Notes under the pieces: generated by a model | Told to the model about the DNA's origin: nothing | Seen by the model: the letters and a program-made list of their open reading frames with translations, nothing else | The model's database searches: none | From: a virus | Lineage: Duplodnaviria; Caudoviricetes | Virus record (IMG/VR): IMGVR_UViG_3300020047_009529 | Span: 2,948 to 66,947 of that record | DNA length: 64,000 bases | Reading direction: 5' to 3' (one strand) | Shown here: positions 601 to 63,468 of the stretch, piece after piece | How the letters are laid out: every line of letters begins with the position of its first letter | How positions within the stretch are numbered: the stretch's first letter is position 1 | Program-made: the position numbers and the translations under genes

Positions 601-783
601 ATGTTGTTAATGGTTTGTCTGTTATTAGTGGTTGCTTCTGTACTAATTATTATTGTGGGTACTAATCCACAATTAGTTGGTAAACAGTTAGCAGTTTTAG
701 TCTTAGTAATCCTTGGTCTGTGTGGGGGTGCATTGCATTGCACATCCCAATTGAACCAAGAAGCAAAGGAGCAATACCAATGA
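601..783 (+). CDS. Small two-TM membrane protein
   Basis: GGAG RBS just upstream, ATG at 601, two hydrophobic stretches; stop overlaps the next ATG (ATGA coupling). Confidence 0.6.
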   Translation: MLLMVCLLLVVASVLIIIVGTNPQLVGKQLAVLVLVILGLCGGALHCTSQLNQEAKEQYQ

Positions 784-1583
784 TTGATTCATTTAAAGGG
801 CAGTATGCTTGGCTCAGTAATATGGCTTTGTTAGATGAACCTATCAATGATGGGATCACTACCTATGTGTCAGTAGAAAATTACTACCAAGCACATAAAG
901 CAAGTGAAAAGTATTGGCCTGACCAAGTTGATCTTACCCCACAAGAAAGTAAAAAGTGGGGTAAACACTTACCACTCAGGCATGACTGGAATCAAATAAA
1001 AAATGATGTAATGTGGGAAGCATTACAACATAAATTCGGTCAGAAGAAATTTCAAGCATTGTTATTGACTACTGATACTCAAGAATTAGTAGAAGGTAAT
1101 TGGTGGAATGATACCTATTGGGGTGTATGTAAAGGCGTTGGTAAAAATATACTTGGTAAAATGTTGATGCAAATCCGTGAAGGACTGCAAGAACATAAGG
1201 ACATTAATATAAATACTAAATTTAATAAAGATCAAAGTAAGGCAGACATTGCTGATGCATATATTGGTATTGGGGCAATTGGTAGCAGTACCGAAATGTA
1301 TGCACAATACTTTGATAAAGTAAATTCAAAAGAATATGTGCCTTATGAAATTGTATTTGTGAGCATTAATGGTAAACGACCTAATTCAGTAGGTATATCA
1401 CAGTATATAAAGTTATTAGATGCTGCTGTACAACAGCGAGTTGTATTCTGTAGTGATAACCCAAGTAATCGCAATCGTGATTACAACACAGGTGAACGTC
1501 ATTTAGCAGAGTACTACACCCATAATGGCTATACAGAGTATGTGTGTAAACACTACTCACTATGGCTACCACCAACCCATTGA
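780..1583 (+). CDS. NADAR-family (YbiA-like) ADP-ribosyl/N-glycosidase fused to an unnamed C-terminal domain
   Basis: F.G.Y.WLSN, SVENYYQAHK, DW..IK.DVM.EAL..KF, LVEGNWWNDTYWG, GKNILGKMLMQIRE are NADAR hallmarks. Likely start ATG 780 after AAAGGA. Extra ~130 aa C-terminal domain. Confidence 0.9.
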   Translation: MIDSFKGQYAWLSNMALLDEPINDGITTYVSVENYYQAHKASEKYWPDQVDLTPQESKKWGKHLPLRHDWNQIKNDVMWEALQHKFGQKKFQALLLTTDTQELVEGNWWNDTYWGVCKGVGKNILGKMLMQIREGLQEHKDININTKFNKDQSKADIADAYIGIGAIGSSTEMYAQYFDKVNSKEYVPYEIVFVSINGKRPNSVGISQYIKLLDAAVQQRVVFCSDNPSNRNRDYNTGERHLAEYYTHNGYTEYVCKHYSLWLPPTH

Positions 1584-1630
1584 ACCAAGAAAGGCAATGT
1601 AATAGTTGCCTTAATTTATTGGAGTAAACC

Positions 1631-1810
1631 ATGCAACAAGTAATCTGTTCTTTCTGTGGTTCAACTGATGTACAAGTTAAAGAAAGTGGTTTGTATATCC
1701 TACACTTTGAAAGTAAACAGTTAATCGCTGGTTATATTCAAATGTATGTATGTAATGTATGCCATCAGTACACATACAACGATGCAAATCATAAACCATT
1801 AACCGATTAA
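1631..1810 (+). CDS. 59-aa zinc-ribbon protein (CxxC...CxxC), below the ORF-track cutoff
   Basis: GGAG RBS at 1621. Translation MQQVICSFCGSTDVQVKESGLYILHFESKQLIAGYIQMYVCNVCHQYTYNDANHKPLTD. Confidence 0.7.
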   Translation: MQQVICSFCGSTDVQVKESGLYILHFESKQLIAGYIQMYVCNVCHQYTYNDANHKPLTD

Positions 1811-1872
1811 CACTTAGCCTAACATTCTAAGGGATGTTAGTTATAAGTGTTATTAACCCAAGGAGCAAGACA

Positions 1873-2352
1873 ATGTGTGTAGAAAGGTTTCATGAGTTGT
1901 TGAGTGATTTTACAGGTAAATCCACTACAAGATTTATTATCTTGAATAAAGTGAATTACATTGCCTGTAAATCTCAAACACCTAATCATAAAGCTATCCC
2001 AACTGATCCAAGGAGATTGATCATGAGTAAGGCAACCTATGCTGTTGGCTATGACAAAGGCCAATACCACGTATATAAGTATGTGGATGACAGCAAAGAG
2101 TCAATCTATGCGTCTTTCATGTATGAGGATCATTCCAAAGCGATAAAGCTGTGTAGTCAGATGAATAGTCTGAATACTATGGACGAGATTCATGCATATC
2201 TTAAACGCTATGGCTACACCTATGAAGGTGTGATCAATGACCTCACTAAACACGGTTTTACTGAGGATGCTCAGATGTTTAAGCATTGCTTAGACATTCC
2301 TGAGTTTATCAAACAAATCGACTTACATCTGTTAGCAGCATGGTGTAAGTAA
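1873..2352 (+). CDS. Hypothetical early protein
   Basis: Open frame with two AGGAG-preceded in-frame ATGs (1873 and 2023). Confidence 0.6.
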   Translation: MCVERFHELLSDFTGKSTTRFIILNKVNYIACKSQTPNHKAIPTDPRRLIMSKATYAVGYDKGQYHVYKYVDDSKESIYASFMYEDHSKAIKLCSQMNSLNTMDEIHAYLKRYGYTYEGVINDLTKHGFTEDAQMFKHCLDIPEFIKQIDLHLLAAWCK

Positions 2353-2400
2353 TTCGATAAGGGCAGTCAAGCTGCCCTTAATGATTTATAGGAGTTAGGT

Positions 2401-3348
2401 ATGAATACACAGACCTCGTATCAAGTATGGTTAGAGCATGAGTATTGCTCAAAACATCTTGAGAAAGTCATCATGGATGACGTTCGTAATAGTACAGCAT
2501 TTGATGAAATGTGCTTTAAAGCAGCATTTGCATTAGAGTCTTGGTGTAATGAGCCTAGTGCTTATGAATCCAAAGCTCTACGTAAACAGGCATTGCAAGA
2601 CGCATGGGTCATTGATGGTGAATCCATGTGGCATAAGCTTGTAGACCGTATTATTGCAAGTGTAGTACGTGAGCAATACACCACATTAACTAATTTAGTA
2701 ATGATGCACACAGGCATCTCTAAATTAGAGAAGCGTGAAGCAATTGTCCTAGCTGCTGAAGTGATTGCTATTGTCTGTATCAGTAGTGAGCTGTTCAGTA
2801 TCAGTAAGCCAAGGAAACAGTACATGATTGAATCGTGTATTGATCCAAGTAAAGAAGTAGCTGATAAGATTGCTCAGACATGCTACTTACCACCATTGGT
2901 AGCAGAGCCTAAGTTAATCAAAATTAACTTTGATACTGTGTATTACACCTATGAGGGTGAATCACAAATACTTGGTAATAAAGCTAACTACCATAATGAT
3001 TGCATCTCTTTAGATGTAATCAATAAACAAAATAGTGTAGCCCTACAACTTTGCCAAGACTTCATTGATGTTTATGAGGAGCAAGAGCCTGAATTTGAAA
3101 TTGAGTCTAAAGAAGACTTGCTTATGGCAAAGATTCAATGGGAACGGTATCAAGTACAGTGTGCTTACTTCTCTAATTTATTAGTGAATATGGGCAATAA
3201 AATCTATCTTGGTAACAAGGTAGATAAACGAGGTAGATTGTACTCAAGTGGTTATCACATTTCTCCTCAAGGAAACAGCTATCGCAAAGCGGTAGTTGAG
3301 TTCTATGAGGAAGTGATTGTGGAATGTCCACCTGAATACAAGTACTGA
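2401..3348 (+). CDS. RNA polymerase II subunit 1 (N4 gp15-like)
   Basis: YLPPLVAEP and KVDKRGRLYSSGYHISPQGNSYRKA (T7-type DxRGRxY motif); ~315 aa; AGGAG RBS. Confidence 0.92.
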   Translation: MNTQTSYQVWLEHEYCSKHLEKVIMDDVRNSTAFDEMCFKAAFALESWCNEPSAYESKALRKQALQDAWVIDGESMWHKLVDRIIASVVREQYTTLTNLVMMHTGISKLEKREAIVLAAEVIAIVCISSELFSISKPRKQYMIESCIDPSKEVADKIAQTCYLPPLVAEPKLIKINFDTVYYTYEGESQILGNKANYHNDCISLDVINKQNSVALQLCQDFIDVYEEQEPEFEIESKEDLLMAKIQWERYQVQCAYFSNLLVNMGNKIYLGNKVDKRGRLYSSGYHISPQGNSYRKAVVEFYEEVIVECPPEYKY

Positions 3349-3434
3349 GCAAGGACACACGGCACACAAGCGGTACGTTAGTACCGCGCAAGTGTGGGGA
3401 GTGTGTCCGTAGCGATTAATGGGGAGTACATAGA

Positions 3435-3779: not shown

Positions 3780-3930
3780 CATCAGTCAAGCACATATAGA
3801 TGAATTATGTATTTATCTATATGGGCATACCTTTTGGGAAGTATCTGCTGATGAATGTAGACATCTTTTACTATTTATTGCAGATATTCAATCATTGTAT
3901 ATTCAACATTGGATGGCACATCATGAATAG
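3754..3930 (+). CDS. 58-aa hypothetical protein (not in ORF track)
   Basis: AAGGA then ATG 3754; fills the gap between neighbours with short overlaps. Confidence 0.4.
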   Translation: MKLAFAFSDISQAHIDELCIYLYGHTFWEVSADECRHLLLFIADIQSLYIQHWMAHHE

Positions 3931-4213: not shown

Positions 4214-4253
4214 AGGCTTATGCCGTCATTGAACCAAGCAAAGGAGCTTGATC

Positions 4254-5477
4254 ATGTTTAAACACTATACCCCTTTTGAGTATTTGCTGATTGATATAGC
4301 CAATGCATTTGGCTTAGACAAGCAGGTATTTGAAGATCGTATTGCTTGGGTCAAAAGCAATATTTATAACTTGGAAGCATTCCAAGTAAATGCTGATGAT
4401 CCTGCTTTGTTCTGTAAGGCTGTCTTAGCCTTGCGTAAAGTACAGGCAGGTAAGCCTACAGGTCATCCTATCAGACTTGATGCGGTTTGTTCGGGCATAT
4501 CCATTATGTCAGCAATGGCAGGCTGCATTGATGGTGCAAGAGCTACAGGGCTTATTGATCCTGATAAGCGTAGCGATTGCTACACAGAAGTTACTGATGC
4601 AATGAATCGACTCTTTAAAGAGGATGGTTTATCTGAAGTGACAGTAGCTCGCTCTGATGCTAAAGACGCAGTAATGAAAGGCGTATATGGATCAACAGCA
4701 GTACCTGAAGAGCTATTTGGGGATTTGGTAGATTACTTCTACCGAGCTGCCAATGAAGTAGCTCCTGCTGCTTTTGAGCTGATGCCTGTCTTAGTCGAGT
4801 CTTGGGATAAGCACGCTATGGCTCATGAATGGGTTATGCCTGATGGGCATAGAGTCTTTATTCCTTCATTAGTGAAGGGTGAGACAAGAGTACGCATTGA
4901 TGAGTTGGGAGGTGCAAGTATCACAGTACAATATCGTGAGAATGCACCACTCAATTATAGTCGTGCTAACTGCGCCAATCTTATTCACTCAGTAGATGCA
5001 TTGGTATTACGTAATATGATTCGTCGTTGTTCTTATGACGTTGATCGTGTGAAGTATGTCAGTGATTTATTGACTATGCACATCTTAGTGCCTACGTTCA
5101 GTGGTCAGCATGATGCTGAATTGGAAAAGCTGATTAAGCTGAGCCAAGAAGCAAAGTGGGTTGATCCTTGTATCATTGATTTGATCCATGAGGAGAATCT
5201 ACACATGATCCCTGTTTCTTTGGCTCAAAGCCTTAACAAGCTATTGAGTCAAATGATGGAACATGAAGCTTTTGACTTGATTACTGTACATGACGCATTT
5301 GGTTGCTTACCCACCAATGCAAATCAGATGCGGTACTGGTACAAAGAAATCATGGCTGAATTGGCTGAATCAGATATGATCAATTTCCTTACTAAACAAT
5401 TAGGCATTACTGCCCACTTTGAGAAGTATGGGGACATTGCTGATCTGATTCGTCAAAGCAATTATGGTCTTTGTTAA
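4254..5477 (+). CDS. RNA polymerase II subunit 2 (N4 gp16-like)
   Basis: LDAVCSGISIM (motif A), RSDAKDAVMKGVYGS (motif B), ANLIHSVDA, VHDAF (motif C). Confidence 0.93.
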   Translation: MFKHYTPFEYLLIDIANAFGLDKQVFEDRIAWVKSNIYNLEAFQVNADDPALFCKAVLALRKVQAGKPTGHPIRLDAVCSGISIMSAMAGCIDGARATGLIDPDKRSDCYTEVTDAMNRLFKEDGLSEVTVARSDAKDAVMKGVYGSTAVPEELFGDLVDYFYRAANEVAPAAFELMPVLVESWDKHAMAHEWVMPDGHRVFIPSLVKGETRVRIDELGGASITVQYRENAPLNYSRANCANLIHSVDALVLRNMIRRCSYDVDRVKYVSDLLTMHILVPTFSGQHDAELEKLIKLSQEAKWVDPCIIDLIHEENLHMIPVSLAQSLNKLLSQMMEHEAFDLITVHDAFGCLPTNANQMRYWYKEIMAELAESDMINFLTKQLGITAHFEKYGDIADLIRQSNYGLC

Positions 5478-5487
5478 TATCCACTTT

Positions 5488-5520: not shown

Positions 5521-5534
5521 ATAAGGAATTAATT

Positions 5535-7033: not shown

Positions 7034-7301
7034 TTACATACAAACAGTTAGGACACCTGAATTATTTGACTTTATGATCACAGCTTTAGGTAAAAGCGCA
7101 TACCCACACTATAAAGATGAAAACCTAATCCTGTTTAATTGTATTACACATAATTGGTTTACAAATAAGACCGAGTATTCTACTAATAAGCTATCCCTAA
7201 CTAATGAACAATTTAAATATTTTATGGAACTAAAGACATTAGGAGTAGTCCTAACTGAATCCATAGTATTAACCTATTTGAACCAAGAAAAGAAGGAGTA
7301 A
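7026..7301 (+). CDS. Small-paralog array member 6
   Basis: AAGGAG RBS; HNWFT...FKYFMELKTLGV. Confidence 0.8.
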   Translation: MGDYIQTVRTPELFDFMITALGKSAYPHYKDENLILFNCITHNWFTNKTEYSTNKLSLTNEQFKYFMELKTLGVVLTESIVLTYLNQEKKE

Positions 7302-15553: not shown

Positions 15554-15577
15554 ACATTGAACCAAGGGGAGATGTCT

Positions 15578-15901: not shown

Positions 15902-15917
15902 TTCCTTGGTTCAACAC

Positions 15918-17444: not shown

Positions 17445-18013
17445 TGCTTGTAGTAACAATGCCTGATAGCAACGAATGCATCATCACAGACATGAGCCAA
17501 GAACAATGGGATGTTATTGGTCTTATGTTATTCAAACCACTCTATGACGGAGATAGCCCAGTACAGGTATTTATCTTTTCTTCTTGGATCAATCAAGCTA
17601 TTGCAGGTCTGCAATTAGCAAAACAAATTTACTTCAACAACCATCAATATGCTGATGCACTCAATGTACAGCAGTTACTTGATTTCAAAGATCAACATGA
17701 TTGTTTAGAAAGGGGTTTGTATGTATCGGTTCAAACTGATAACTCAAATCCATCTTCAGACTTCTTAACTGCAACAGTAAAAACATCTTATTTGAACCAA
17801 GAAGTAGAGATGCCTGTTGATTGCAATAAATTAGAGCGGTTCTTTAAACAGACCATAACTGAAGGTGAGTACGTTATTTACATTGGTTCAGCTATTGTTA
17901 ATAATGATACTTTAGTTATTTCGTTACATCGTACATCAAATGATGCATGGTTAGAAGCATGTCTGAATGATGAGACAATTATCCCATTGGATGATTACCA
18001 CATTACTGTATAG
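17435..18013 (+). CDS. Hypothetical protein
   Basis: Intact 192-aa ORF. Confidence 0.7.
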   Translation: MSVMLVVTMPDSNECIITDMSQEQWDVIGLMLFKPLYDGDSPVQVFIFSSWINQAIAGLQLAKQIYFNNHQYADALNVQQLLDFKDQHDCLERGLYVSVQTDNSNPSSDFLTATVKTSYLNQEVEMPVDCNKLERFFKQTITEGEYVIYIGSAIVNNDTLVISLHRTSNDAWLEACLNDETIIPLDDYHITV

Positions 18014-18241: not shown

Positions 18242-18943
18242 ATGTTTCCAATCAATCAACTTGTACCAATGGGTAGTGTACTCGCACTACCTAACAAAGT
18301 AGTTACACGTCTGCGTTCTACTGGTTCAGGGGTAAGTGAATCAAACAAGTTTACTACCATTTTACGTGGTGTAAATTGCAGTTATACTGAATCCCTGTTT
18401 GCTGCTGAAATTAAAAATGAGTTGTGTTCAATTGATCGCAAATTTGCTGAAATTGATTACAACTATCGTCAATTGCTGCCTTACGTAGTTTTTGTTTGTA
18501 CAACTACTCGACGTGTATTGAATTACAAACGTGGTAAAGCAGGTAGTGAATCTCGCTTGCATGATCTACGTTCTGTTGGCTTTGGTGGGCATATTGATAG
18601 TCAATTAGACTATTACAGTGAAGCACATTACCGCTACCAATTTGATAAACTCATTTTTGACAATATCAAACGTGAAGTTCAAGAAGAATTGGGATGGGAT
18701 ACTATTGAACCAAGTATCAAACAATTTGAGGGCTTACTCATTAGCAACAACCCTGATCCAAAAGAGGTAGGTCACTATCATTTGGGTATGTTGTTTATCA
18801 TCCAAGTTGATAGCCGCTTTGCTATTCAACCTGAAGTAGGTAATGTTGAGTTGCCTGAATGGGTATCTATTGGTGAGTTGGATCAACTCAATCTTGAGCC
18901 TTGGTCACATGCAGTCAAACCTGTGCTTAACAAATACCTTTAA
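18242..18943 (+). CDS. Nudix (MutT-like) hydrolase, COG4112-type
   Basis: GFGGHID...KREVQEELG split Nudix box, HLG, LEPWS. Confidence 0.82.
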   Translation: MFPINQLVPMGSVLALPNKVVTRLRSTGSGVSESNKFTTILRGVNCSYTESLFAAEIKNELCSIDRKFAEIDYNYRQLLPYVVFVCTTTRRVLNYKRGKAGSESRLHDLRSVGFGGHIDSQLDYYSEAHYRYQFDKLIFDNIKREVQEELGWDTIEPSIKQFEGLLISNNPDPKEVGHYHLGMLFIIQVDSRFAIQPEVGNVELPEWVSIGELDQLNLEPWSHAVKPVLNKYL

Positions 18944-19956: not shown

Positions 19957-20183
19957 TGCCTGTATATGTCATTTATGCCCAAGACCTATTGGGTGTTCAG
20001 TACCAAGATGTTATTACAGCTCAGGATGACATCCATGCGCTTGAGTGCCTTGATAAAGCTTACACTCCTGAAGAATCTACAACTAAACGTGGGTTCTTTC
20101 TACTGTCTAAGTTTGATGAAGACCTCACAGAAGCTAATGTATGGATAGAGCGTCACTTGAACCAAGGAGATAGAGATGATTAA
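19956..20183 (+). CDS. Hypothetical protein
   Basis: GGAG RBS; start overlaps the previous stop. Confidence 0.65.
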   Translation: MPVYVIYAQDLLGVQYQDVITAQDDIHALECLDKAYTPEESTTKRGFFLLSKFDEDLTEANVWIERHLNQGDRDD

Positions 20184-25017: not shown

Positions 25018-25378
25018 TTGGATTACTCCCTCGAATGATTTGAATCTTAACATGTGGTAATGTCATAACTGAATCATCAGCCTGTACTTGAAGAATAATA
25101 TAGGCTTCAGTAGTAGGCCACTCAACCATTGAACCAATAAGATCTAGAGTACACCATCCTGCATTCTCTACTTGGTTCAAATAGGGTGTACACGTCAGTT
25201 GACCAATAACATTACCTACAGCATCTTTAATAATACCTGTAATAGTAATATCTTGATCAATGAATACACCTCGCTCACTTTCAATTGTTTCAGGATTCAA
25301 GTCATACAATTGTATGCTTAAATCAAATGTACCTTCTGTGTAGAATGGTGGAATAATCCCATAAATATCTTTATACAT
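25010..25378 (-). CDS. Putative tail-module (BppU N-domain-like) protein
   Basis: ATG 25378 after AAGGAG; LTC......GW...W pattern recalled from Acinetobacter phage tail proteins. Confidence 0.5.
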   Translation of the reverse strand: MYKDIYGIIPPFYTEGTFDLSIQLYDLNPETIESERGVFIDQDITITGIIKDAVGNVIGQLTCTPYLNQVENAGWCTLDLIGSMVEWPTTEAYIILQVQADDSVMTLPHVKIQIIRGSNPNE

Positions 25379-26823: not shown

Positions 26824-27858
26824 ATGCCTTATTTATCGCAGATAGAGACACCTACAGACAGTCATGTCTACCAGTACCCAACGGCTGAATGGGTAGCTGA
26901 AGAGCAGATGGCTATCCAATGGGGAGCTAAAGAGTTAGGGGTTGAGAACGATGAGAACGATTTTCGTACTCGACTGAACCAAGGAGAAAAGTATGCAGTG
27001 CAGTACCTACAATCATTGCTTACTAAGTTTGAAACCTTCATTGGTGGTGAAGACTTGTGGGCATATCGTATTCCTAAGTTATTTCCTCGCCCTGAAATTC
27101 AACGTGCAGCATCTGTTATCAGTTGTATTGAAAATGATAGTCATGCCCCATTTTATATGCTTGCAAACCAAGTATTAAATTTGGACACTGATGAATTTTA
27201 TGCACAGTGGCGTAATGATCCTATCATTTCAAATGCAATTAATTATATTACTAAGGTATTAGAAGACACAGATGCCTTGGTAGTAACAGGGTTACTTGCA
27301 GGTCTTGAAGGTGTAAAACTATTTACTAATTTAGGATTCTTCAAATGCTTTAATACCCGTGGATTTAATTTAATTCCACACTTTGTATCAGGCATTGATG
27401 GATCAACCAAAGATGAAAACTTTCATAGTATGTTTTCTTCTTATTTATTTCGTCAATGTAAGTCTGAACGTGAACAGTTAAATAACCACGCTGAACCCCA
27501 AGAGATTGTACTCTCAGCTAAGATTACTGAGATATTTGAATCCTTGGTTCAATTTGAAAAGAATACAGCTAATCATATTTTTGATTACTCAGATTCATTA
27601 CCAGAAGATCAACGTATTCGTGTATGCACACGAAAAGAGTTGCATGACTTTACAGAAGATCGTGCCAACTTTGTTTTAGGTAACTTGGGCTATGAACCTA
27701 TGTTTGAACGTGAGAAAGGGGAAATTACTAATTTCCTTTATGCAAATCTTTCACGTTATAAGCATTCTGATTTTTTTGCTACTCAACAATTGCAGTATCG
27801 TCGCAATGTGAATGTTAGCAAATTAGCCTTTAACCCTAATGCGTTGGAATTACTATGA
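26824..27858 (+). CDS. nrdB: Ribonucleotide reductase class Ia beta subunit
   Basis: E...HAPFY, EGVKLF, KDENFH diiron ligands; adjacent to nrdA; start ATG 26824. Confidence 0.9.
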   Translation: MPYLSQIETPTDSHVYQYPTAEWVAEEQMAIQWGAKELGVENDENDFRTRLNQGEKYAVQYLQSLLTKFETFIGGEDLWAYRIPKLFPRPEIQRAASVISCIENDSHAPFYMLANQVLNLDTDEFYAQWRNDPIISNAINYITKVLEDTDALVVTGLLAGLEGVKLFTNLGFFKCFNTRGFNLIPHFVSGIDGSTKDENFHSMFSSYLFRQCKSEREQLNNHAEPQEIVLSAKITEIFESLVQFEKNTANHIFDYSDSLPEDQRIRVCTRKELHDFTEDRANFVLGNLGYEPMFEREKGEITNFLYANLSRYKHSDFFATQQLQYRRNVNVSKLAFNPNALELL

Positions 27859-34396: not shown

Positions 34397-34422
34397 AGGG
34401 GCTTAACTGCCCCTTTCTTTTT
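34397..34422 (+). terminator. Rho-independent terminator
   Basis: AGGGGC-TTAACT-GCCCCT then TTCTTTTT. Confidence 0.8.
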
Positions 34423-34442
34423 GAACCAAGGAACAAAGCACC

Positions 34443-41800: not shown

Positions 41801-44800
41801 TATACGCTCCATAAGCTACAACAGAAATGATAAGGCCATTGGTCACACCGTCAGACTCATAGGCTAATGAGGTAGTGAGCTGTGTTCCTGCTGCTTTAGC
41901 ATCAAAGTAATCTACAAGGCTATCCAAGGCCATGACACTTAGCCCTGCCATACCAAACTCACTTACTGCTTCTTGGATTGCATTCAGGTCTGCTAAGCCA
42001 CCATTACGCATCTCACGCATGGCTTCTACACCTTTAGCCACTACAGGACTTGTATTGATGTATTCCAAGAATGATGGGATATACAAACCTGCTGTAGTCT
42101 TATCATGTGTGGTGTTAATAGTGAGTGGTGCTTCCTCCATGTTTGCCCCTAGAGCAAGTAAGTAGTAGCCAAAGGGTGTAATAGTGCCATCTGCATTGAA
42201 TGGGGAATCTATGTCAATAGTGACCGTATGCTCTTTAAGACCAATCATAGAGCGACTAATCTTATCAGCCTGTTCATTTAAAACAGTGGCATCAATACCA
42301 ATACGGTTTACTTCCCATACCTTCATAGGCATGTACATATCAGGGTAGGTATCCCCTTCAATTGAGCCAAGGAAATCAAGGTTATTGTTGATACTGCGGA
42401 TGATCCCCTCATTGATAGCCTGTTGCTCTAAACGGGTACTAATGTGCTTATTTGCAAGCTCCTCAATAGGCACATACCCTAAAAGTCTTAGCAATGCATC
42501 GTGGTTCAAAGCACTCATAGTCTGATAGAAGTTGACCATATTAGTATTAACTGAGTATGGCTTGGCTTGCATACGCTTAACTTTTTGAGCCAAATCAAGA
42601 GGAATCTCAGTACCAGTACTGCTAATGGTCTTTTGACTCAACCCTTTGATTGGTTCAAATGAAGGATACCGTAACTCATTCTCAGTACCAAATAATGAGT
42701 TCATCAAACCTTGAGTGCCACGAGTAACATCCATTACACGTTTTACAAATTTATTTGGTTCATTATTTTCCCAAATAGGTCTTGCAAGGTAAACACGGTA
42801 AGCTGAGTTATTAGCAATTAGGGGGTCTTTCTCTGCTTCCTGCTCTGATGCATCAGAGATCATATTAGCAAATTCTCTAAATTCATCTAATGCATAAGAA
42901 GTCTCCTCAAGTAAATTACCGTCAAGCATAAGTACGTAAGCAATAGTACCTAACGCACTTTGCAATTTATCTTTACGAGTTGAGCTTAAACCTTTATCAA
43001 GTTTAAACCCTAAAGACTTGTATGCACGCTCACCTAAACTTTGAATAATTTGGTTAGTGAATTGACCTGCATCAGTAAACTCTTTGAATACTTCAAGCGG
43101 AACAATAGCAGTTTCTTTAAAACCAAATAGTGCTGCTACTTGTTCCATGTTGCGATAACGCTTACCACCATTCTCAGCTACCCAACTAAACATAGAAGCT
43201 GTAATAGCAGTCTTGATGTTTTCATCAATAGTACCATCAGGATTAATCAAGTATTGAATCCAATCCTGATATTTGAATTTACTATCAGCACCTTTATTAC
43301 GAATAAAAGATGCAATCTTTTTACTATGTAGTTCATTAAACTTACTGAATGCAACCAAAGCATCTTCCTGTTTAGGCGTTAATGCACCTAAAATACTTGC
43401 AGCATTTGTCAACAAGTCTTCTTTGAGCCAAGACATGAAGTCTTTATTAGCTGCAAGAAAAGTAGACTTAACTTGTTTGAAGCTTGCAACTAACAAGTTT
43501 GCTTTTTGATAACCCGTCGATTCAGTACGATTATCTTCTTCAGATAAAGCACGTTCAAACTCTTTATCACCCTGCATGGCAGTAAGGCCATCAACTACAT
43601 CTTCAATTACTGGATCAACCGATTCAGAAGTAGATTCTACAATAGTTGTACTCTCACTATCTGTTGCAATAGTCTCAGGATCAGTATTCAGGTTTGCAGT
43701 ACCTACATCTTGATCATTTACATCCTCTTCTACAGGAATTTCTACAGTACCTGTAGAAGGATCATTAACTACGTATGTCCATTCAGCATGTAGACCACTA
43801 GGATTTTTTACGTAACCCTTAGAGTATAGATACTCTGCTAAATCTTTCTCACCTGTATTAAACGATGTAATAAGAAAGTCAGTAATAAATACTGCTTTTG
43901 CTGCAATAGCTTTATCTAACTCAGGTTTAATCGCTTCAAGTTTAACAGCATCTTTTCGATTACCATTAATGGATACGAATACTTTCTCCCCTTCAGTATA
44001 TGTACCTTTATTAGCTAAATCACCATACTGATCTTCATAGTAAGCAGTACTGCTATTAGGAGCACCTTTACCAATAAAAGAGTCTGCTGCATTAATTTTA
44101 GATAATTCTTTTCTCCGTGTATCACTGCTAATATTTCCTTTTGTAATAATAATTGGCTTATCGTTCCCTACTTCAGTTTTATCTGTTACAGGGGTAGTCA
44201 CTTCATTACTTAATTCAATATCTTCTGCCTTTGGTTCAGCTTTAGTATCAAGTGAGCTTAGTGTTTTAGCATAAACATCTTTGATAGCTTGTTTAGCTGC
44301 ATTAGCAATCTCATCACCAACGTATTGTTTTCTTGGTTCAAACTTACCTGTTAGTTGGTTTTTAGTATTGTAATTTTCAATATCTCTAGTACCAATACCA
44401 GCAAATTCTTTAGTTAAAGTAGGTGTAGTAGTAGCTTGGAATACACCCTTAGCTCTATTAAATTCGTACCATCTTTGAGTATTAGTATCCCAAACATAAA
44501 CAGGACGAACCTTGTCAGTTAGTTTGATAGCTAATTGGATAGCAGTATTAGTACCACCAGTAACACCTTTTTTATTGGGCGTTAGTGAACCAATAGCAAA
44601 TACACCATCAGAATTAGCTACTTGATAATAATTACGTGCTTGTAAGTTACCAGCAATATCATCCTTATGGTTAGTACCAAGTAGACTATTAACGGTATCT
44701 CTAGCTTTATTTAATGCAGCAGCAGTAAGGATAACTGCTTTAACACCAGCATCTTTAAGCTTTTTAGATAGGTTACTATTATTCTCATCTCGATAGTGAT

Positions 44801-47800
44801 TATGGTTAGTAACACCAAATTCACGACCAACAGTATCCCACATGGTATCTGCACCATAAGCACCGCCAGAATGGTTGGTATAACCCTGTAATGCTAATTC
44901 AGCTTTAGTTTCTGTAGCTGCTTCTGGCTTTACATCAGCTTTAGTTTCTTCTTTACTTGGTTCAACTTGCGATAGATAAGCTTCATTCAGTGCTAGGATA
45001 AACCAGTTCTCACCTCCAGTTTCCCATACAGTGTTCTTTGAAGTTGGTTGGTGTGTAGCTGCCAATATCCACTTAGAACCACCCTGCTTAGTAATTCCAA
45101 CTACTAATGCAGGGTACTGTTTTAATTTAGCTTTAAGAATAGCAACCATGAGTCTGTAATTATTACTAACCTCTCTAGCAGGTTTAGTTCTACTTTCTGT
45201 AGGATGTTTAATTGCTTGAAAAACTGCTTCAGCATCTTTATAAGTTTTACCACCAAATTCTATTGGATAAGACTCTGTAATATTACCCTTTGATTTAGCC
45301 AATTCAGTAGGATTAGTAAGAGCAGCAGCCAAACCTTTTGCATTAGAACTGATTTCTGTAGTAGCTAACTCAATATCTTCTGCTTTTGGTTCAGCCGCTT
45401 TAGCTGCGCGTTCAGCTTCTTTCTTAGCTTTATCTGCTTGGTATTGATTACGGATAATACGATCTAAGTTGTTGTAGTCATCAAGGGCAGATTGAAAGTC
45501 TTCAGTAACTGTTACTTCTTCAGGTTTAACTGAATTAAAATAATCAACAGTTTTACCAATAGATTCAACTTCAGTACCTATACGCTGAATAAGATTACCA
45601 CTGCCTTTATGAATTAACATACCACCATTTTCAACTAGGCCGTTTACATCAGCACTTGTTTGGTAGTTACCCGCTTCTGCAAGTACCCACTCATTACCTG
45701 ATTTCCAAACAGGAATAGCCAAACCTGTTGGTACTTTTGCAAATGCTTCTTTAGCTGCTTTATGTTTTTTGATATGTGAATCTTGAAATGAAGTAAGTTG
45801 AGTATACAAACGATTTAATACATTTGTATTACCTGAGTTCTGAGCAGTGTTCCACTCTTTCACATATTCTTTCAAACCTCGAAAGTTTTTTACATCAGAC
45901 TTAGAGCCAGTAGTAATATCACCTGTTACTAAATCCAAATCTTTAGATGAATTCAAAGCAACAATAGCTTCTGAAAACTTACGTAGATTATTACGTTGAT
46001 CATCAGTTAATCCATTAGTCAAATCATCAACTACTGAATTAATCTTAGATACGTTTTCTGGCAATGGCTCTAACTCAATAGTAGCATCATAAGTTGAATA
46101 ATTTGCTTTATTATGCACCTTATTCAATCGACTAAATTGACTCTGCAAATCTTCTTGAGTTGCCTTAGCTTTATCTAAAGAAGCTAAATAAACTTCAGGT
46201 GTAGCTTCTTTAACAATATTATAAGAAGCTGTCATTGCTGCATTAGCTTTAGTAATTAAATCTGTGTAAAGCTCTTTGGATTCATCACTCAATTCAGGGT
46301 TAGCAAGAATTTCTTCAAGCTTTGCTTCATTACGTGTTACTGCCCCATTAACCACTTTTTCATATTGAGCATAGGTTGCTGTTTGAGCATCAAGTAAGTC
46401 CTGTGCATCATTTACAGTCTGACGTGCATCATTGAAGACTTGATCTTTATCTTCTTGGTTCTCAGCTTGTGAGTAAGCAAAGACATATCGTTTAACCGCT
46501 TCAGATGGGTTATACGACTTAGATTGAGGATTAACTAAGTCTGCTACATCAGTAGTAGTGTCTGTAGGTGCTTCAGGGTTAATAGCAGGTTTACCTGTAA
46601 ATTCATTAGCAATAGCCCCAGGTGTACCAACTACCCCACCTGACAATCCCCCAAGAGCTGCACCAATACCAACATCAACAGGGTTATCAAAGCCACCCAA
46701 CGAACCTAGACCACCCTCAATTGCTGACTGCCAGCCTTCCGCAAATGTTTCAGCTCCTGTAGGTGCAGCAATACGCCCTGTTGAGCCAAGGATAGAAGTA
46801 GCCATCTGTAGGGGTGTTTTAGCTACTGCTTCTGTAGATTTAGTAGCTATTCCCAGTGGGGTAGTTACAAGTTTATCACCTACAAAGTTTAACCCTGCGT
46901 ATGCCAAGTCATACAAAGCCATATCTGCTTTTTCTTGCTGTGTAGGTAAACGTCCTTCACGAGCTGTAAACTGAGCCGTAGACTTGGCTGCTTGATCAGT
47001 CAATGAAGATACTGCACCTATAAAGGGTGCTAAAAAGTAAGGTAAAGACTCAGCAATAGTTGTAGGCACAGTAGTCAAATTATTAGTAGCGTTATCAAAC
47101 GCACTCATAAATGCATTGCCTAATTTTGCTGTATCTGATTTTGCATTGATAACATTAGGATCACCTGCAACATTCTCTTGCAAGTTTTGCATATTTCGTT
47201 GGTTATACCATTCTTTAGTATTTAAAGCATTTGGTGTTTTACCATCAGCTTCATACCCCCGTTCTTTTAATACTGCTTCACGGATAGCTTGAGCATTATC
47301 TAAATCTTCACGAAATGTATTTCCTGTTTTTGGATTACGAGTATTTACCAATGATATCTCCCAATTATCAATTTGGGCATAAGATGTCCAAATTTCAAAC
47401 ATCGTCTGTTCACGTAATAATTCTTCGTCATTAGGTTTTTTTGCTAATTCAATTTTAAATTTTTCATAATCACGTGCTAGTGAAAGTCTCGATTGATTTT
47501 TATGTAAAATGTTTGAATACGCTTCTTTAACCCGATCAGGTACAGTGGATTCAATCATAGCTGCATCTACTGTATCTGGAATTGTTTTAATATTCCGATA
47601 AATGTTGTTTGCAGTAGCAGCTACAGCTAATGACATGTTTGCTAAGTTAGCTGGAACACTAATCAAAGGATTAGTACTTTCTAATTGAGCTGTATTAACA
47701 ATTGGATGATCTTTATCTAAGTTATCGTACTTTTTATTTGCTTCAAGATTAGCTACTTCTTGGCGTGCTACTTCGGCAATAGTACGTGGATCAGTACCAC

Positions 47801-48070: not shown

Positions 48071-48102
48071 ATTTAACGCCTTATTGAACCAAGAAACAAG
48101 GC

Positions 48103-53365: not shown

Positions 53366-53381
53366 ATGTTTGAACCAAGGA

Positions 53382-54380
53382 TTAAGGGGCTGGTACTGAA
53401 TAGTCAGTAGCGTCAGGTGTAATACCTAATGGTGACATGGCAGCTTCAATCACATTACCCATATTATGATCATTCAGGTAATTGATATGATCAGCAGCCG
53501 TCAGGTCATCAGCGTTACGTCGAACATTCCAAGTATCAGCATACACTTTTACAAGCTTGAGTCGAGCATCATGATCAAGGGCTTCTTTCTGTTTGATCAA
53601 GACTTGATTCTGGTAGTAGATCACTGATCCTGTCAGTACACCTGTAGGATCGACTTGGGCTTTCTCTGTAGCAGTCTTTTGAGTATAGAGGGTTGTTTGT
53701 GCTTCCTGTGACTCTTTCTGAGCTTGGCTCAAAGCAATCTCTTTGTCCTTCAATGAGGACTCTTTATCAAGGATAGTCCCTTGCTTACCAATATTGATTG
53801 TCTGAGCATCTGCCTGTGCTTTCTGACTGTTGACTAAAGCTGTCTGTGCTGTCATTTGAGTCACCTCAGCAGGAAGTCGAGTGGTCAGTGTATATGTTGC
53901 AATATTGGTATTAGCTTCGATACTTGCTACTTCGGCAGGTAATCTACTGTTCAAGGTATATGTTGCAATATTTGTATTCGCTTCAATACTTGCCACTTCA
54001 GCAGGTAGCTTGGTAGACAAGGTGTATTCAGCAATATCAATCTGACTTTGAGCCAATAAGGCTTGCTTGGTCTGTACTTCAGTCTCTTGAACCAAGAGAG
54101 TATATTGTTGCTCTAACAAGGCAATCTCGTAACCTTGCTTCTCTTTAGCTAATGCATAAGCACTTGCTTGCTGAAGTACAGCAGGAATTGATTGCATAAC
54201 CATATTGGACAATTCATTTTTATTGATATGCCCTTTATTGAGTAGTATCTCTAATTGAGATACCACTCCGCGCATCAAAACATCAAATACCCCTACACCT
54301 GTTGCAATACCTTGAGTAAGGTTACTCAAGTCAATTGTTGGTGCATTAGGTACTGCAATATCAATAGTAGGGGTAGTCAT
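53382..54380 (-). CDS. Tail structural protein (N4 gp54-like) with 21-aa repeats
   Basis: LT.G.ATG.GVFDVLM, Q..LY.QK..TE.AQ; synteny. Confidence 0.8.
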   Translation of the reverse strand: MTTPTIDIAVPNAPTIDLSNLTQGIATGVGVFDVLMRGVVSQLEILLNKGHINKNELSNMVMQSIPAVLQQASAYALAKEKQGYEIALLEQQYTLLVQETEVQTKQALLAQSQIDIAEYTLSTKLPAEVASIEANTNIATYTLNSRLPAEVASIEANTNIATYTLTTRLPAEVTQMTAQTALVNSQKAQADAQTINIGKQGTILDKESSLKDKEIALSQAQKESQEAQTTLYTQKTATEKAQVDPTGVLTGSVIYYQNQVLIKQKEALDHDARLKLVKVYADTWNVRRNADDLTAADHINYLNDHNMGNVIEAAMSPLGITPDATDYSVPAP

Positions 54381-60740: not shown

Positions 60741-62369
60741 TCAAACAATGTAATTGCGAATACTGTAGTCATCATCATCACCTTTATGACTGATGTGATT
60801 AGACCAAACACCCCTACCATCACTACGCATATTAGCATTTGCTGATGGATAAAACACATTCAACAAAGCAATCTGACTTGTACCATCAATAAAGTCATCC
60901 TTCTTAGCTTTGATTCCCCCACTACTGATCATCATCAACTGATTATTGATCCCCTCTTTCAAGATAGGATGAGTCTTCCATTCAACAGGGAAGTAAATCT
61001 TACCCCCCTTGAACCAAGGAACAATGACATTAAACCGTTGAAGCTTATCGACTGTTGGTCTAATTCCAGGCTTACTTGAATTGTTACTACTGGTCAATGC
61101 AAAGAAGGTATTCCTAGTCAGCATCTCTTGCTGAATCCAAGGAATAAAACCCCCTTGTTGACCTGACACTTCAATACCTACTTCATAAGGCTTATACTGA
61201 GATACAAGTCTAAAAAGATCATCAATGTTTTTATCCATTGTCTGCCTTTCAAGAACACCGTCTACCCAAAACCAATCTCTATTATTATTGACTGCCCACA
61301 CATTCAAGCTACTAAAGTCAGCACTCTGCTTATCACTCGTAGCAAAGTCAGTAGTAATATAAAAATTATAATTGTCTTTATTGCGAATTAACTCACTACG
61401 CTTATACCAACGTATGTCACTTTCAACAATTAAGCGTTCATCATTATTCATTACCCGTAGCATCATCTCTTGGTAAAAAGCAGATACTCGACCTTGCTTT
61501 AATAACTTATCATATACGCCATTCACATATTCATAAGTAAAACGATCAGGCCAACTCCCTTTAAATTCAGCTTCAGTACATGGAAACTTCTCACATACAG
61601 GAAATACGTTTACTTTCCATGCACCGCTCTCAACAGCACAATATAAAGGGTCATTTGCATTAAATGGTGTACCACACCAAATAATCATATTCTTTCTAGG
61701 GTGTAATGCAAACTCAATAGCGTTACTCACGGTAGTCTTAATAGTCTCCATGACTGTCAAACTACGTGCATCTTCATCAGACACCAAGTCATCAAGCACA
61801 GCTAATTGAGGACGTACATTTAATTCTTGAGTACCCCGTACACCAGTAGAAGCCCCATAAGCTTTTACCAAAAACGATTGACCATCATGGTTAGTAAACT
61901 CCCATCGAATATCAGTAAACCGTATACTAGGAATAAGCATCTTTAAGAAAGGACTATTATCCCAAGTATACTCTAAGTTTTTACGCATATTTTTAACTCC
62001 ATTATCTACAGAGTCAGAAACGTATAGCATCAAAGTAATTTGACCAAAACTATCAATATGTCTGAAAGCAGCTAAATAAAGAATTAAGTACCTCATAAGG
62101 GTAGTCTTAGCAGCTCCTCGATGAATCATGTTTGCAATACGTACTTGTATCTCATTAGGCTTAATTTTCCCTAATTGATCCAAGACATGATAGTGCAATA
62201 CTGGTGATTTGTTTTCTTCACCCTTCTCACCATTAACTTGCTTAATAAACTCAATAAGTTTTAAAGCAAATAAAGAAGGTTGATAGTTATAGTCAATACT
62301 ATAATCTACACCATCTAACCATTCATCAACACTTTTAGATGTCAAGTCTTCATTATTAAACATCTTCAT
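60741..62369 (-). CDS. Terminase large subunit (N4 gp68-like)
   Basis: HRGAAKTT, RPQLAVLDDL, GTPF, TTDFATSDKQSADFS, KDDFID. Confidence 0.95.
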   Translation of the reverse strand: MKMFNNEDLTSKSVDEWLDGVDYSIDYNYQPSLFALKLIEFIKQVNGEKGEENKSPVLHYHVLDQLGKIKPNEIQVRIANMIHRGAAKTTLMRYLILYLAAFRHIDSFGQITLMLYVSDSVDNGVKNMRKNLEYTWDNSPFLKMLIPSIRFTDIRWEFTNHDGQSFLVKAYGASTGVRGTQELNVRPQLAVLDDLVSDEDARSLTVMETIKTTVSNAIEFALHPRKNMIIWCGTPFNANDPLYCAVESGAWKVNVFPVCEKFPCTEAEFKGSWPDRFTYEYVNGVYDKLLKQGRVSAFYQEMMLRVMNNDERLIVESDIRWYKRSELIRNKDNYNFYITTDFATSDKQSADFSSLNVWAVNNNRDWFWVDGVLERQTMDKNIDDLFRLVSQYKPYEVGIEVSGQQGGFIPWIQQEMLTRNTFFALTSSNNSSKPGIRPTVDKLQRFNVIVPWFKGGKIYFPVEWKTHPILKEGINNQLMMISSGGIKAKKDDFIDGTSQIALLNVFYPSANANMRSDGRGVWSNHISHKGDDDDYSIRNYIV

Positions 62370-62517
62370 CCCCTAGATACTGTTCCCACTTAACTGCACC
62401 GCAGTTATGGCATTTCCAACAACTCCTTGCACCAAAACGATTAATAGAATCACCATAAATGTTAAAAGCCAATTCCCATTTATGCTTGCAGGTAAACCAA
62501 TGTTTAATCCATTTCAT
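62356..62517 (-). CDS. 53-aa Cys/His-rich protein (not in ORF track)
   Basis: GAGG RBS; MKWIKHWFTCKHKW...WKCHNCG. Confidence 0.55.
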   Translation of the reverse strand: MKWIKHWFTCKHKWELAFNIYGDSINRFGARSCWKCHNCGAVKWEQYLGDEDV

Positions 62518-63217
62518 GTTCAATCACCTCACCTTTAACTGTACGCATCTCTGCTACATCCTTAGCAGACATCCCTTGTTCAATCAATCCTAATTGAGCT
62601 TTAGCAATAGCAGCTAATGATTGCTCTACTTGGCTCAATGGTGAATTTTCACTAATACCTAAACTCAATTCTACTTTCTTAACTTCAGGTGGACGAAGAA
62701 TATCAGTCAATTTAGCAGCAGCATTGTACTTAACCATTTCCGATTTAGAGTTATGCATTAAATCATTAAGCTTACTCAAAGCATCATGATACAGCCCTTG
62801 ATTCAAAATCCAAGTAGGAATAATGGTCTGTGCCATAATTGCACTAACCAACTTACTCTTATTATAAGAAGATATGTAAGATTGAATAGTACTACTCGTA
62901 GAACCATTATTAATATGTTGCTTATACCGATCAGGAAAAGCCTTCATATAAGCTTCAGTGTTACTCATACCCATTTGCTTATAAGATACGTAACGTACTG
63001 CATTAACATACTCATGCAGCTTGTACTTACCTTCACGAAATACTGTATTGAAGTTAAGAATATTCTGTTTGAATATCTCTGCATAGTTAGGATCACCTAA
63101 TGCAGAATTAACCTCAGTCAACAATTCATCATTGACTGATTTACGTAAATGACTTGGCATTGCTTCTCGCAATTCCTCAATAGTCATTAGTGTGCTTGGT
63201 TCAAGAAGTGCAGTCAT
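62504..63217 (-). CDS. N4 gp69-like protein (terminase small-subunit candidate)
   Basis: GKYKL..YVNAV.YV.YK.MG..N.EAY...FPDRY; synteny. Confidence 0.85.
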   Translation of the reverse strand: MTALLEPSTLMTIEELREAMPSHLRKSVNDELLTEVNSALGDPNYAEIFKQNILNFNTVFREGKYKLHEYVNAVRYVSYKQMGMSNTEAYMKAFPDRYKQHINNGSTSSTIQSYISSYNKSKLVSAIMAQTIIPTWILNQGLYHDALSKLNDLMHNSKSEMVKYNAAAKLTDILRPPEVKKVELSLGISENSPLSQVEQSLAAIAKAQLGLIEQGMSAKDVAEMRTVKGEVIEHEMD

Positions 63218-63246
63218 GTTTGCTATCCTATAACTTAGATACAGTT

Positions 63247-63297
63247 AGCCTATAGTTTTAAATTTAATTTGACAAGTAAAAAACATTGAGTTAATTT
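63247..63297. promoter_or_regulatory. Overlapping divergent sigma70-like promoters
   Basis: Plus: TTGACA(63269)-N17-TAATTT. Minus: TTGTCA-N17-TAGGCT. Confidence 0.5.
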
Positions 63298-63468
63298 GCA
63301 CCTACACTTTCGCTTTAAGGTAACGACTTGTTAGGTGTTCTCGCTATACAAGTTGATTGACCTACCCCCAACACTCTAATGAAGTTTGCCCAAGCTTTGT
63401 TAGAGTGTTTTTTTTTTATCAAGCAGCACTTTCGTGCTGTATGCCCTTTGAACCAAAGAGTAAAGACC

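Follow-up and report, generated by a model that had tools for sequence, protein, structure and literature searches.

The N4-like phages are a large family that serves as a model system and is used in phage therapy. To our knowledge, the middle promoters read by RNAP II have so far resisted identification in most of them. In yeast mitochondria, a nonanucleotide promoter (9 nt) is used by a T7-like RNA polymerase and serves both transcription and replication priming. Cluster K mycobacteriophages carry the SAS, a conserved word of 10–13 nt that lies a few bases 5' of some start codons and overlaps the ribosome-binding site; as far as we know, it has been described only at gene starts and in the sense orientation. 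Primase recognition sequences include the T7 gp4 template sites (primers ACCC, ACCA and ACAC), the GTG of pRN1 ORF904 and the hairpin sites ssiA and ssiB of RepB'. For coliphage N4, one report describes the RNAP II minimal promoter as 9 bp long (−7 to +2), read on the template strand and reportedly numerous, and the middle promoters as highly AT-rich (PMC4496689). A report on LUZ7 places GC hairpins about 15 bp upstream of a G start at the middle promoters and lists 46 start sites overall from cappable-seq, 4 of them middle (PMC9163698).

The DNA analysed here (the window) is a stretch of 64,000 nt from a 66.9-kb contig of the N4-like (Schitoviridae) type. The phage was detected in wastewater, sludge and freshwater sequencing runs of 14 studies. 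Contigs from four of these runs, one of them a true metatranscriptome, carried neither transcript ends nor strand information. Its genome contains TTGA-N-CCAAG followed by about ten purine-rich bases, which is this phage's version of an oriented family word, R-A-N-CCA-R, present in many N4-like phages on both strands and independently of genes. Like USS/DUS, Chi and KOPS, the word has many copies on both strands, lies within genes in any frame, and keeps its density while its positions turn over. Unlike them, it follows a phage family through many hosts, is missing from other phages that infect the same host and shows no polarity along the genome. The copies before start codons are placed similarly to the SAS, but they make up about one-tenth of a genome-wide set on two strands. 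The yeast mitochondrial promoter may be taken as a model for one word with two uses, although its sequence is unrelated and its copy number is lower.

Shape, abundance and conservation of the word

The 10-letter repeat is genuine, and selection maintains it on both DNA strands. The form TTGAACCAAG occurred 22 times in the window compared to 0.20 expected, and none of 100 shuffles reached 22. The whole contig contained 16 forward and 7 reverse copies, and the backwards-read control gave 0. The true pattern was TTGA-N-CCAAG, with 47 copies in the 66.9-kb contig compared to about 1.3 expected. The word is enriched about 30-fold and not avoided. Position 5 was free (A 23, G 11, T 10, C 3), position 10 was G (23) or A (8), and the remaining eight letters were strict. 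The strict core TGA-N-CCAA was found 119 times (about 16.5 expected), 61 times on the + strand and 58 times on the − strand, or about once per 1.1 kb per strand. Core copies were spaced more evenly than random (CV 0.70–0.80 vs 0.98) and showed no strand switch along the genome. The earlier note had counted GAACCAA by eye at roughly 25–30 per strand, which agrees with 36 copies on + and 28 on − in the window (64 compared to 8.7 expected in total).

The word is asymmetric, with no palindrome, and carries a downstream purine tract. The 10 nt after the core contained 7.2 purines vs 5.2 for sense copies and 6.6 vs 4.8 for antisense copies; the non-coding copies were purine-rich there too.

Most core copies were intragenic (105 of 119, about 90%), 56 in sense and 49 in antisense orientation. 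Sense copies used both possible reading frames and antisense copies all three, and therefore no single peptide accounts for them. Within CDS, TTGA.CCAAG occurred 19 times in sense and 19 times in antisense, compared to about 1.5–1.6 and 1.3 after synonymous-codon shuffling and 0.4 and 0.5 after codon-order shuffling. The enrichment thus persisted under the codon-aware null that the earlier note had named as the test able to refute it. The equal abundance of the two orientations points to a DNA-level word and not to a peptide or mRNA signal.

Conservation was compared among 11 strain-variant contigs that are 93–99% identical. The seven fixed core letters varied at 1 of 448 positions, whereas the flanks varied at 113 of 2816 (4%; Fisher 1e-6). 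The N letter varied at 6 of 64 positions, and antisense copies were conserved as well as sense copies. The word is a DNA-level signal under purifying selection.

The best form of the word lay 9–41 nt before the start codon of 12 of the 56 + strand (early/middle) genes, 11 of these within 9–19 nt, compared to 1 of 23 minus-strand genes. Copies in spacers were strand-biased as well (11 on + vs 3 on −), and half of the non-coding copies (9 of 18) lay 2–13 nt downstream of a GC hairpin. All sites listed in the earlier note exist (Table 1): TTGAACCAAG on the + strand at 751, 1580, 4229, 7278, 15557, 20157 and 34421, TTGAACCAAA at 9515, 32782 and 63448, and CTGAACCAAA at 25991. The antisense copies at late gene ends (48084 and 53370 on +, between minus-strand late genes) were also present, as were the direct pair around the NADAR gene (780–1583) and the inverted pair around the holin gene (15578–15901). 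The inverted copy assigned to 15904 exists, but its position is 15905–15914. Of the wider interpretation, which was partly supported, the placement at gene starts and boundaries held for 12 early/middle genes, but the copies lie mostly inside genes. The succession of terminator and word was seen at the 9487 hairpin, but of the eight strong terminator-like hairpins in 1–20 kb no other is followed by the word, and five adjoin no copy at all.

Several candidates were rejected. An upstream hairpin is not part of every copy, as the coding copies had no excess structure. The copies at 17792 and 26974 are not gene starts, since both are internal to genes (26974 in nrdB). The word is not a sigma-70 −35 box: the gap to the start codons is too short for a −10 box, and sigma-70-like sites were under-represented in 1–20 kb (47 vs 85). 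Separate early-promoter candidates, CGCTACGCT, occurred at the left end only. Most likely, the word is a site where a phage enzyme begins copying DNA or RNA rather than a plain mark of gene starts.

Table 1. Copies of the word in the window and genes of its candidate readers
Feature	Coordinates	Strand	Context
Exact word	751..760	+	19 nt 5' of ATG, NADAR-type early gene 780-1583; GC hairpin ends 2 nt upstream
Exact word	1580..1589	+	TGA of the word doubles as stop codon of 780-1583; followed by hairpin 1591-1612; 41 nt before ATG 1631
Exact word	4229..4238	+	15 nt before ATG, RNAP II large subunit gene
Exact word	7278..7287	+	18 nt before ATG 7306; within 3' end of 7026-7301
A-ending variant TTGAACCAAA	9515..9524	+	17 nt before ATG, vWA gene 9542-10741; after terminator-like hairpin 9487-9508
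Exact word	15557..15566	+	11 nt before ATG 15578, small holin-like gene
Exact word	15905..15914	-	Between stop 15901 and hairpin 15918-15937; on its own strand, hairpin 5 nt upstream
Exact word	17792..17801	+	Sense, inside CDS 17435-18013
Exact word	18705..18714	+	Sense, inside CDS; among strains the N letter alone varies
Exact word	20157..20166	+	9 nt before ATG 20176
Exact word	25171..25180	-	Sense in minus-strand CDS; faces + strand near-copy at 25129
C-starting, A-ending variant CTGAACCAAA	25991..26000	+	11 nt before ATG of thyX (26012)
Exact word	27543..27552	-	Antisense in nrdB
Exact word	27882..27891	+	Sense, RNR large subunit gene
Exact word	31084..31093	-	Antisense, primase gene
A-ending variant TTGAACCAAA	32782..32791	+	12 nt before ATG, Sak4-like gene; hairpin ends 5 nt upstream
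Exact word	34421..34430	+	12 nt before ATG 34443; GC hairpin and T-run end 7 nt upstream
Exact word	38744..38753	+	Antisense, vRNAP gene
Exact word	44332..44341	-	Sense, vRNAP gene
Exact word	44956..44965	-	Sense, vRNAP gene
Exact word	48084..48093	+	Antisense, in the gap separating two minus-strand late genes; + strand hairpin 13 nt upstream
Exact word	53370..53379	+	Antisense, in the gap separating two minus-strand late genes; + strand hairpin 4 nt upstream
Exact word	54087..54096	+	Antisense, late gene
Exact word	61009..61018	+	Antisense, late gene
Exact word	63195..63204	-	Sense, near start of minus-strand gene 62504-63217
A-ending variant TTGAACCAAA	63448..63457	+	11 nt before ATG 63469; hairpin ends 8 nt upstream
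gp43-type primase gene	30607..32769	+	MCM-like AAA+ N-terminal module and AEP (PrimPol-like) C-terminal domain, both predicted; favoured putative reader
RNAP II small subunit gene	2401..3348	+	Rival candidate reader
RNAP II large subunit gene	4254..5477	+	Rival candidate reader

Distribution among Schitoviridae and other phages

The word is a property of the phage family and not of a host. In coliphage N4, GA.CCAG occurred 171 times compared to 55 expected. GAACCAG was found 53 times in sense and 55 times in antisense within N4 CDS, compared to 13 and 18, and only 3 of 110 N4 copies were intergenic. The N4 version was not enriched in T7 and lambda, which infect the same host. Among 76 other Schitoviridae loci, the best z for xxA.CCAx was at least 6 in 30 (about 40%), whereas reversed or other cores reached this in 1–3 of 76.

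Lineage versions of R-A-N-CCA-R varied only at the two purine positions. The downstream purine tract was also present, in weaker form, in N4 (p 7e-5) and most relatives; it was not seen after the core in T7 and lambda. The even spacing of the core was not seen in N4. Relatives conserved the density of copies and not their positions. Some Schitoviridae (loci L082–L085 and L092) had the gp43-type gene and no such word.

The nearest relatives of this phage shared 53–54% DNA polymerase identity. No close relative emerged when 20 kb were compared with phage records by megablast or when only the DNA polymerase was used to query IMG/VR. A literature search for GAACCAG/CTGGTTC together with N4 returned nothing relevant. 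The word can serve as a simple sequence marker for the family and its lineages in metagenomes.

Helicase-primase and RNAP II as candidate readers

Our preferred but tentative reading, to which we give a probability of about 40%, is that the word is the start site of the conserved gp43-type helicase-primase. The word would be read on a single-stranded template as a start site by this phage enzyme, which would begin a purine-rich primer at or right after the word. Many copies on both strands are what lagging-strand priming would need. The roughly 12 copies before early/middle genes would then be the optimal form (N = A). Their downstream tract may be supplied free by the purine-rich ribosome-binding stretch, and these copies may additionally serve RNAP II.

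Searches of the primase sequence against PDB and NCBIfam gave no match, and only the fold search was informative. It assigned the C-terminal domain to AEP PrimPol (best match 6zp9, E 2e-4) and the N-terminal part to an MCM-like AAA+ module. The number of phage records with the gp43-type gene was close to that for the N4-type capsid gene (475 vs 487; similar by organism name). The gp43-type matches listed came from phages of about 70–78 kb, and none was seen without the rest of the N4 core. RNAP II and other core genes are distributed in the same way. Therefore, gene presence or absence among the matches listed does not separate the primase from RNAP II.

The core resembles a primase site in being a short oriented word, readable on a single-stranded template, that occurs on both strands at about the spacing of Okazaki fragments, within the sub-kb to kb range of primase sites. 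Known T7 primase sites were likewise enriched on both strands compared to a synonymous shuffle (142 vs 104 and 144 vs 113), and this phage encodes a predicted AEP-type primase. The T7 primers ACCA and ACCC with their cryptic preceding base, in product sense G-A-CC(A/C), resemble G-A-N-CCA. Eukaryote-type primases favour pyrimidine-rich templates. However, known primase sites comprise 3–5 nt, and a strict word of 8–10 letters with a purine tract would be unusually long, far beyond lagging-strand sites. A presumed primer whose second letter is free would also be odd for a primase. Furthermore, a pure priming signal does not predict the bias of non-coding copies toward the + strand and early/middle genes. 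The hairpins before nine of the 18 non-coding copies recall the hairpin-type middle promoters of LUZ7 (PMC9163698) and count against priming. The even spacing of the core also fits a primase site here, and its absence in N4 speaks against one, as do the Schitoviridae that have a gp43-type gene and no such word.

The main rival, which is possible but doubtful, is that the heterodimeric phage RNAP II uses the word as its promoter, starting at the purine of position 10 and making a purine-rich initial transcript. Units of hairpin and word would then correspond in function to LUZ7 middle promoters, and rightward copies of the late region would help to pull the genome in. Intragenic copies would be internal or antisense promoters or would prime replication, a role that T7 and mitochondrial RNA polymerases have. 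The contrast between + strand and minus-strand genes in carrying the optimal form before ATG argues for this reading. Twelve early/middle genes carry the word shortly before their start, the nine hairpin-associated copies fit the LUZ7 arrangement, and position 10 followed by a purine tract resembles T7-type initially transcribed regions. The early-promoter candidates CGCTACGCT, which are separate from the word, stay at the left end. The N4 RNAP II promoters are similar in their very short element (−7 to +2) and template-strand reading, as reported for N4 (PMC4496689).

However, about 90% of the core copies are intragenic, half of them antisense and equally conserved, and in relatives L009–L012 the word is mostly antisense to middle genes. 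The N4 form GA-N-CCAG is not AT-rich, in contrast to the reported nature of the mapped N4 promoters (PMC4496689), and N4 copies are rarely intergenic. The start sites reported for LUZ7 number 46, 4 of them middle, and not a hundred (PMC9163698). The scarcity of the word at strong terminator-like hairpins in 1–20 kb also argues against this reading. The promoter or operator proposed in the earlier note is possible for the roughly 12 copies before early/middle genes, but it leaves the intragenic and antisense majority and the N4 homologue unexplained.

A combination of the two is unlikely. One word would then be the common start signal of single-strand-dependent synthesis in the N4 family, acting in RNAP II (middle) promoters and, where the fork exposes it, seeding lagging-strand or replication-coupled synthesis on both strands. 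If this were true, middle transcription, genome entry and replication would be tied to one signal.

A family-wide selected word of 7–10 letters offers a concrete handle that predicts chain starts, and coliphage N4 is suited to a direct test. Whichever enzyme proves to be the reader, the outcome would be informative: either an AEP helicase-primase that recognises an unusually long sequence, or a defined RNAP II promoter.

Other candidate readings: protein binding, recombination and RNA or host signals

It is also rather improbable that the word serves to bind a different conserved phage protein, for example one that would organise, protect or recombine the genome, with no chain starting there. 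Candidates are the gp24/gp25 ATPase-vWA pair, the Sak4-type annealing protein and the helicase, and several conserved proteins of the replication module are without known function. A word that is strict and asymmetric, leaves one central letter free, is selected in many copies on both strands and occurs family-wide with lineage-specific letters is consistent with such a site. However, the conserved purine tract gives direction and a length of about 20 nt, which simple binding would not need, and the palindromic symmetry expected of dimeric duplex binders is absent. The small HTH protein at 8008–8337 had no PHROG family and only sub-threshold Pfam matches; therefore, it is not a family-wide candidate.

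A role as a hotspot or microhomology for cassette exchange among related phages, another proposal of the earlier note, is very unlikely. The direct and inverted pairs around the NADAR and holin genes would fit it. Four of 24 contig joints or loose ends lay at most 10 nt from a core, compared to about 1.7 expected within 15 nt. Two of these four represent a single 150-bp strain indel (1857–2008) between two CCAAGGAG stretches before gene starts, one of which carries a core. However, none of eight indel or alignment boundaries among the 11 strain contigs fell within 15 nt of a core, and intein gain or loss at about 28667 was not at a copy. The copies lie mainly inside conserved genes, where exchange would be harmful, and relatives keep their density without their positions.

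A role in mRNA, as a translation enhancer or processing site (both raised in the earlier note) or as the target of a regulator, is equally improbable, and so is a host-derived word (uptake sequence, Chi or restriction/modification target). In favour, copies before starts lie just 5' of the ribosome-binding site or overlap it, and the genome clearly avoids other words in the restriction manner. However, intragenic copies are split evenly between sense and antisense with equal enrichment and conservation, instead of lying in sense just before start codons, and Rfam models gave zero matches to the whole window at the gathering threshold. The core is unchanged across hosts that span Proteobacteria, and the word is not shared with other phages of the same host as judged on N4's host (T7 and lambda). 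Strand polarity of the Chi or KOPS kind is lacking, and the word is asymmetric and enriched where a restriction or modification target would be palindromic or avoided.

The avoided words in the same genome were CCGG (2 vs 169), GGACC (0 vs 53) and CCAG (79 vs 279). Avoidance of CCAG was ruled out as the cause of the CCAAG form, since the CCAAG form also occurs in relatives L009 and L012, where CCAG is not depleted.

Letter pattern and selection on the word

Every site that the earlier note had listed for the word TTGA-N-CCAAG was present in the window, and its impression of over-representation was borne out by 22 copies of the exact 10-mer against 0.2 expected and 64 copies of GAACCAA against 8.7 expected. 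Across the contig, TTGA-N-CCAAG was found 47 times and its core TGA-N-CCAA 119 times (61 on the + strand and 58 on the minus strand), compared to 16.5 core copies expected; core spacing was somewhat more even than random. When each letter was substituted in turn, eight letters of the 10-mer were strict. Letter 5 was free (A 23, G 11, T 10, C 3), and G, then A, was preferred at letter 10.

Within genes, 19 sense and 19 antisense copies of the 10-mer pattern were counted, compared to 1.6 and 1.3 after a synonymous-codon shuffle and 0.4 and 0.5 after a codon-order shuffle. The enrichment thus survived the codon-aware null by which the earlier note had proposed to judge it. Sense copies occurred in both frames where TGA is not a stop codon and antisense copies in all three, and peptide or codon bias does not account for the word. 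Because antisense enrichment equalled sense enrichment, an mRNA-level signal was ruled out as the main cause.

Selection was followed in 11 contigs of strain variants (93-99% identical), which span 34.5 kb of the window and cover 64 core copies. Only 1 of 448 positions in the seven fixed core letters was variable, an alignment shift beside an inserted G, compared to 113 of 2816 flanking positions (Fisher 1e-6) and to about 25 variable positions predicted by codon-position-matched rates. The free letter N varied at 6 of 64 positions. With the fixed letters almost invariant and N variable, purifying selection follows the word at the level of single letters.

The 10 bases 3' of the core held 7.2 purines in sense copies and 6.6 in antisense copies, compared to 5.2 and 4.8 in the respective controls, and were also purine-rich in non-coding copies. 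This gives an element of about 20 nt whose orientation is independent of that of the genes.

Gene layout, gene starts and hairpins

Genes in the window, which covers bases 2948-66947 of a 66,947-bp IMG/VR contig, are ordered as in an N4-like podophage (Schitoviridae), according to an ORF heuristic cross-checked with the called genes of strain contigs. Its capsid protein was at most 57% identical to those of cultured N4-like phages. The phage or near-identical strains were found in wastewater, activated-sludge and freshwater runs from 14 studies.

Gene layout of the window
Feature	Position	Strand	Remark
RNAP II small subunit	2401-3348		
RNAP II large subunit	4254-5477		
ATPase, vWA protein, helicase, DNA polymerase	8416-15149		
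thyX and ribonucleotide reductase (RNR)	26012-29555		
RNR large subunit	27855-29555		
Exonuclease, gp43-type gene, Sak4-type protein			one group in gene order
gp43-type gene (putative primase)	30607-32769		
Virion RNA polymerase (vRNAP)	35877-48023	minus	4048 aa
First late gene after the vRNAP gene	48103-50451	minus	
Late genes including capsid protein		minus	

At about 28667, the RNR large subunit gene of three strain contigs (L099, L100 and L103) carried a 331-codon insertion with intein-splicing and LAGLIDADG domains, absent from this genome and others. In the first of the late genes that follow vRNAP, a stretch of >60 nt occurs twice in direct orientation, 147 nt apart, at 48174-48390, duplicating about 49 codons in frame.

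The core lay in sense within 60 nt upstream of 12 of 56 + strand genes but only 1 of 23 minus-strand genes. Eleven of the 12 copies ended 9-19 nt before the ATG and the twelfth 41 nt before it, and their N was nearly always A. The genes so preceded included those for the RNAP II large subunit, the vWA protein, thyX and the Sak4-type protein, and the right-end gene. Spacer copies numbered 11 on the + strand and 3 on the minus strand; two of the former have minus-strand late genes on either side and are antisense to them.

A GC hairpin stood 2-13 nt ahead of the word in 9 of 18 non-coding copies, and none was found upstream of coding copies. At 15905, 48084 and 53370, the gene strand reads stop codon, reverse word, hairpin and T-run, so on the word's own strand the hairpin comes first, irrespective of gene direction. 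Terminators are not generally paired with the word: among the eight strong terminator-like hairpins of the first 20 kb, five had no adjoining word, and only the one at 9487 had the word after it. Over window 1-20000, terminator-like hairpins were over-represented (25 vs 10.7) and sigma-70-like promoter matches under-represented (47 vs 85 +/- 9 in shuffles).

Separately, CGCTACGCT occurred in seven + strand copies, all within the left 3.5 kb of the contig: two in the window (129-137 and 580-588) and five upstream of it (about 166-2580 of the whole contig, G000:C1). Each was followed at a distance of about 40-60 nt by a small early gene, and most by a GGCA-N4-TGCC hairpin. The virion RNA polymerase may use these copies as early promoters. 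One further copy, the eighth, is inverted (the + strand reads AGCGTAGCG) and was located at 4567 within the RNAP II large subunit gene.

Distribution across the family

In relatives with 53% DNA polymerase identity, (T)GAACCAAG was over-represented; its copies lay at non-homologous positions and were mostly antisense to genes. GAACCAG was the most over-represented 7-mer of coliphage N4 (110 vs 26), where GA-N-CCAG reached 171 copies vs 55; N4 genes held 53 sense and 55 antisense copies of GAACCAG, compared to 13 and 18 after the synonymous shuffle. Among 76 IMG/VR Schitoviridae loci (20 kb around the DNA polymerase gene), the best xxA-N-CCAx word reached a z of 6 or more in 30, compared to only 1-3 for reversed or other cores. 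Lineage variation was confined to the purine at letters 1 and 7 (GA..CCAG, GA..CCAA, AA..CCAG or AA..CCAA). The purine tract was weaker but present in N4 and most relatives. Within the literature collection searched, no paper on this word was found.

Candidate readers of the word

We propose that the word may be where a template-directed enzyme, working on single-stranded DNA, begins a chain rich in purines. Four features fit such a site: the word is strict and asymmetric, with purines downstream of it; about a hundred copies, spread over both strands, are under selection; copy positions change between relatives but copy density does not; and the core is shared across the family, with purines that differ by lineage. 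Among conserved phage enzymes, two would start chains in this manner, the gp43-type primase and RNAP II.

The gp43-type primase is our tentative choice of reader, with a probability of roughly 40%, because only priming needs many copies inside genes on both strands. In addition, N4's word is neither AT-rich nor intergenic, unlike the mapped N4 middle promoters, which are said to be both (AT-rich: PMC4496689). The primase assignment comes from PHROG names and predicted folds. The protein model (pLDDT 86 overall, 91 for the C-terminal domain) predicts that residues about 1-435 form an MCM-like AAA+ module and residues about 436-720 an AEP PrimPol-like domain. The best fold match of the AEP domain was cyanophage S-2L PrimPol; next came LigD polymerase, poxvirus D5/E5, human PrimPol and RepB'; no sequence match of the gp43-type primase to a solved structure was found. 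The poxvirus D5 primase-helicase has the reverse of this predicted domain order. As a control, known T7 primase sites, like the word, outnumbered those of a synonymous shuffle on both strands, but only 1.3-fold.

RNAP II, which in N4 recognises a promoter of 9 bp on the template strand (PMC4496689), is the main rival and the less probable reader. It explains the gene-start subset better than the primase does, through the + strand bias, the hairpins and G at letter 10; the word may also serve both enzymes. Without RNAP II, the pre-start position could arise because, within a spacer, only the ribosome-binding stretch provides a purine tract, but this would leave the scarcity before late genes unexplained (a weak difference, p about 0.09).

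The recombination hotspot also proposed earlier was not convincing, with 0 of 8 strain boundaries near a word copy. One 150-bp strain indel is flanked by two CCAAGGAG pre-start stretches, at about 1857 and about 2008; at 1802-2010 a deletion of 150-195 bp, present in some strains only, takes out a small ORF.

Other readings were rejected: an RNA family (no Rfam match at gathering threshold anywhere in the window), a Chi- or KOPS-like word (no polarity along the genome), a host word (T7 and lambda, which share N4's host, showed no enrichment of N4's version, and the core is family-wide) and a restriction target, the word being enriched whereas CCGG, GGACC, CCAG and CTAG are avoided.

Contig-wide, CCGG occurred 2 times vs 169 expected, GGACC 0 vs 53, GCCTC 1 vs 53, CCAG/CTGG 79 vs 279 and CTAG 114 vs 461. 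This depletion of short words looks like restriction avoidance. Avoidance of CCGG and GGACC, but not of CCAG, was common to two relatives (L009 and L012). GATC occurred only twice in the 70 kb of coliphage N4 (L093 and L094), compared to about 515 copies expected from base composition.
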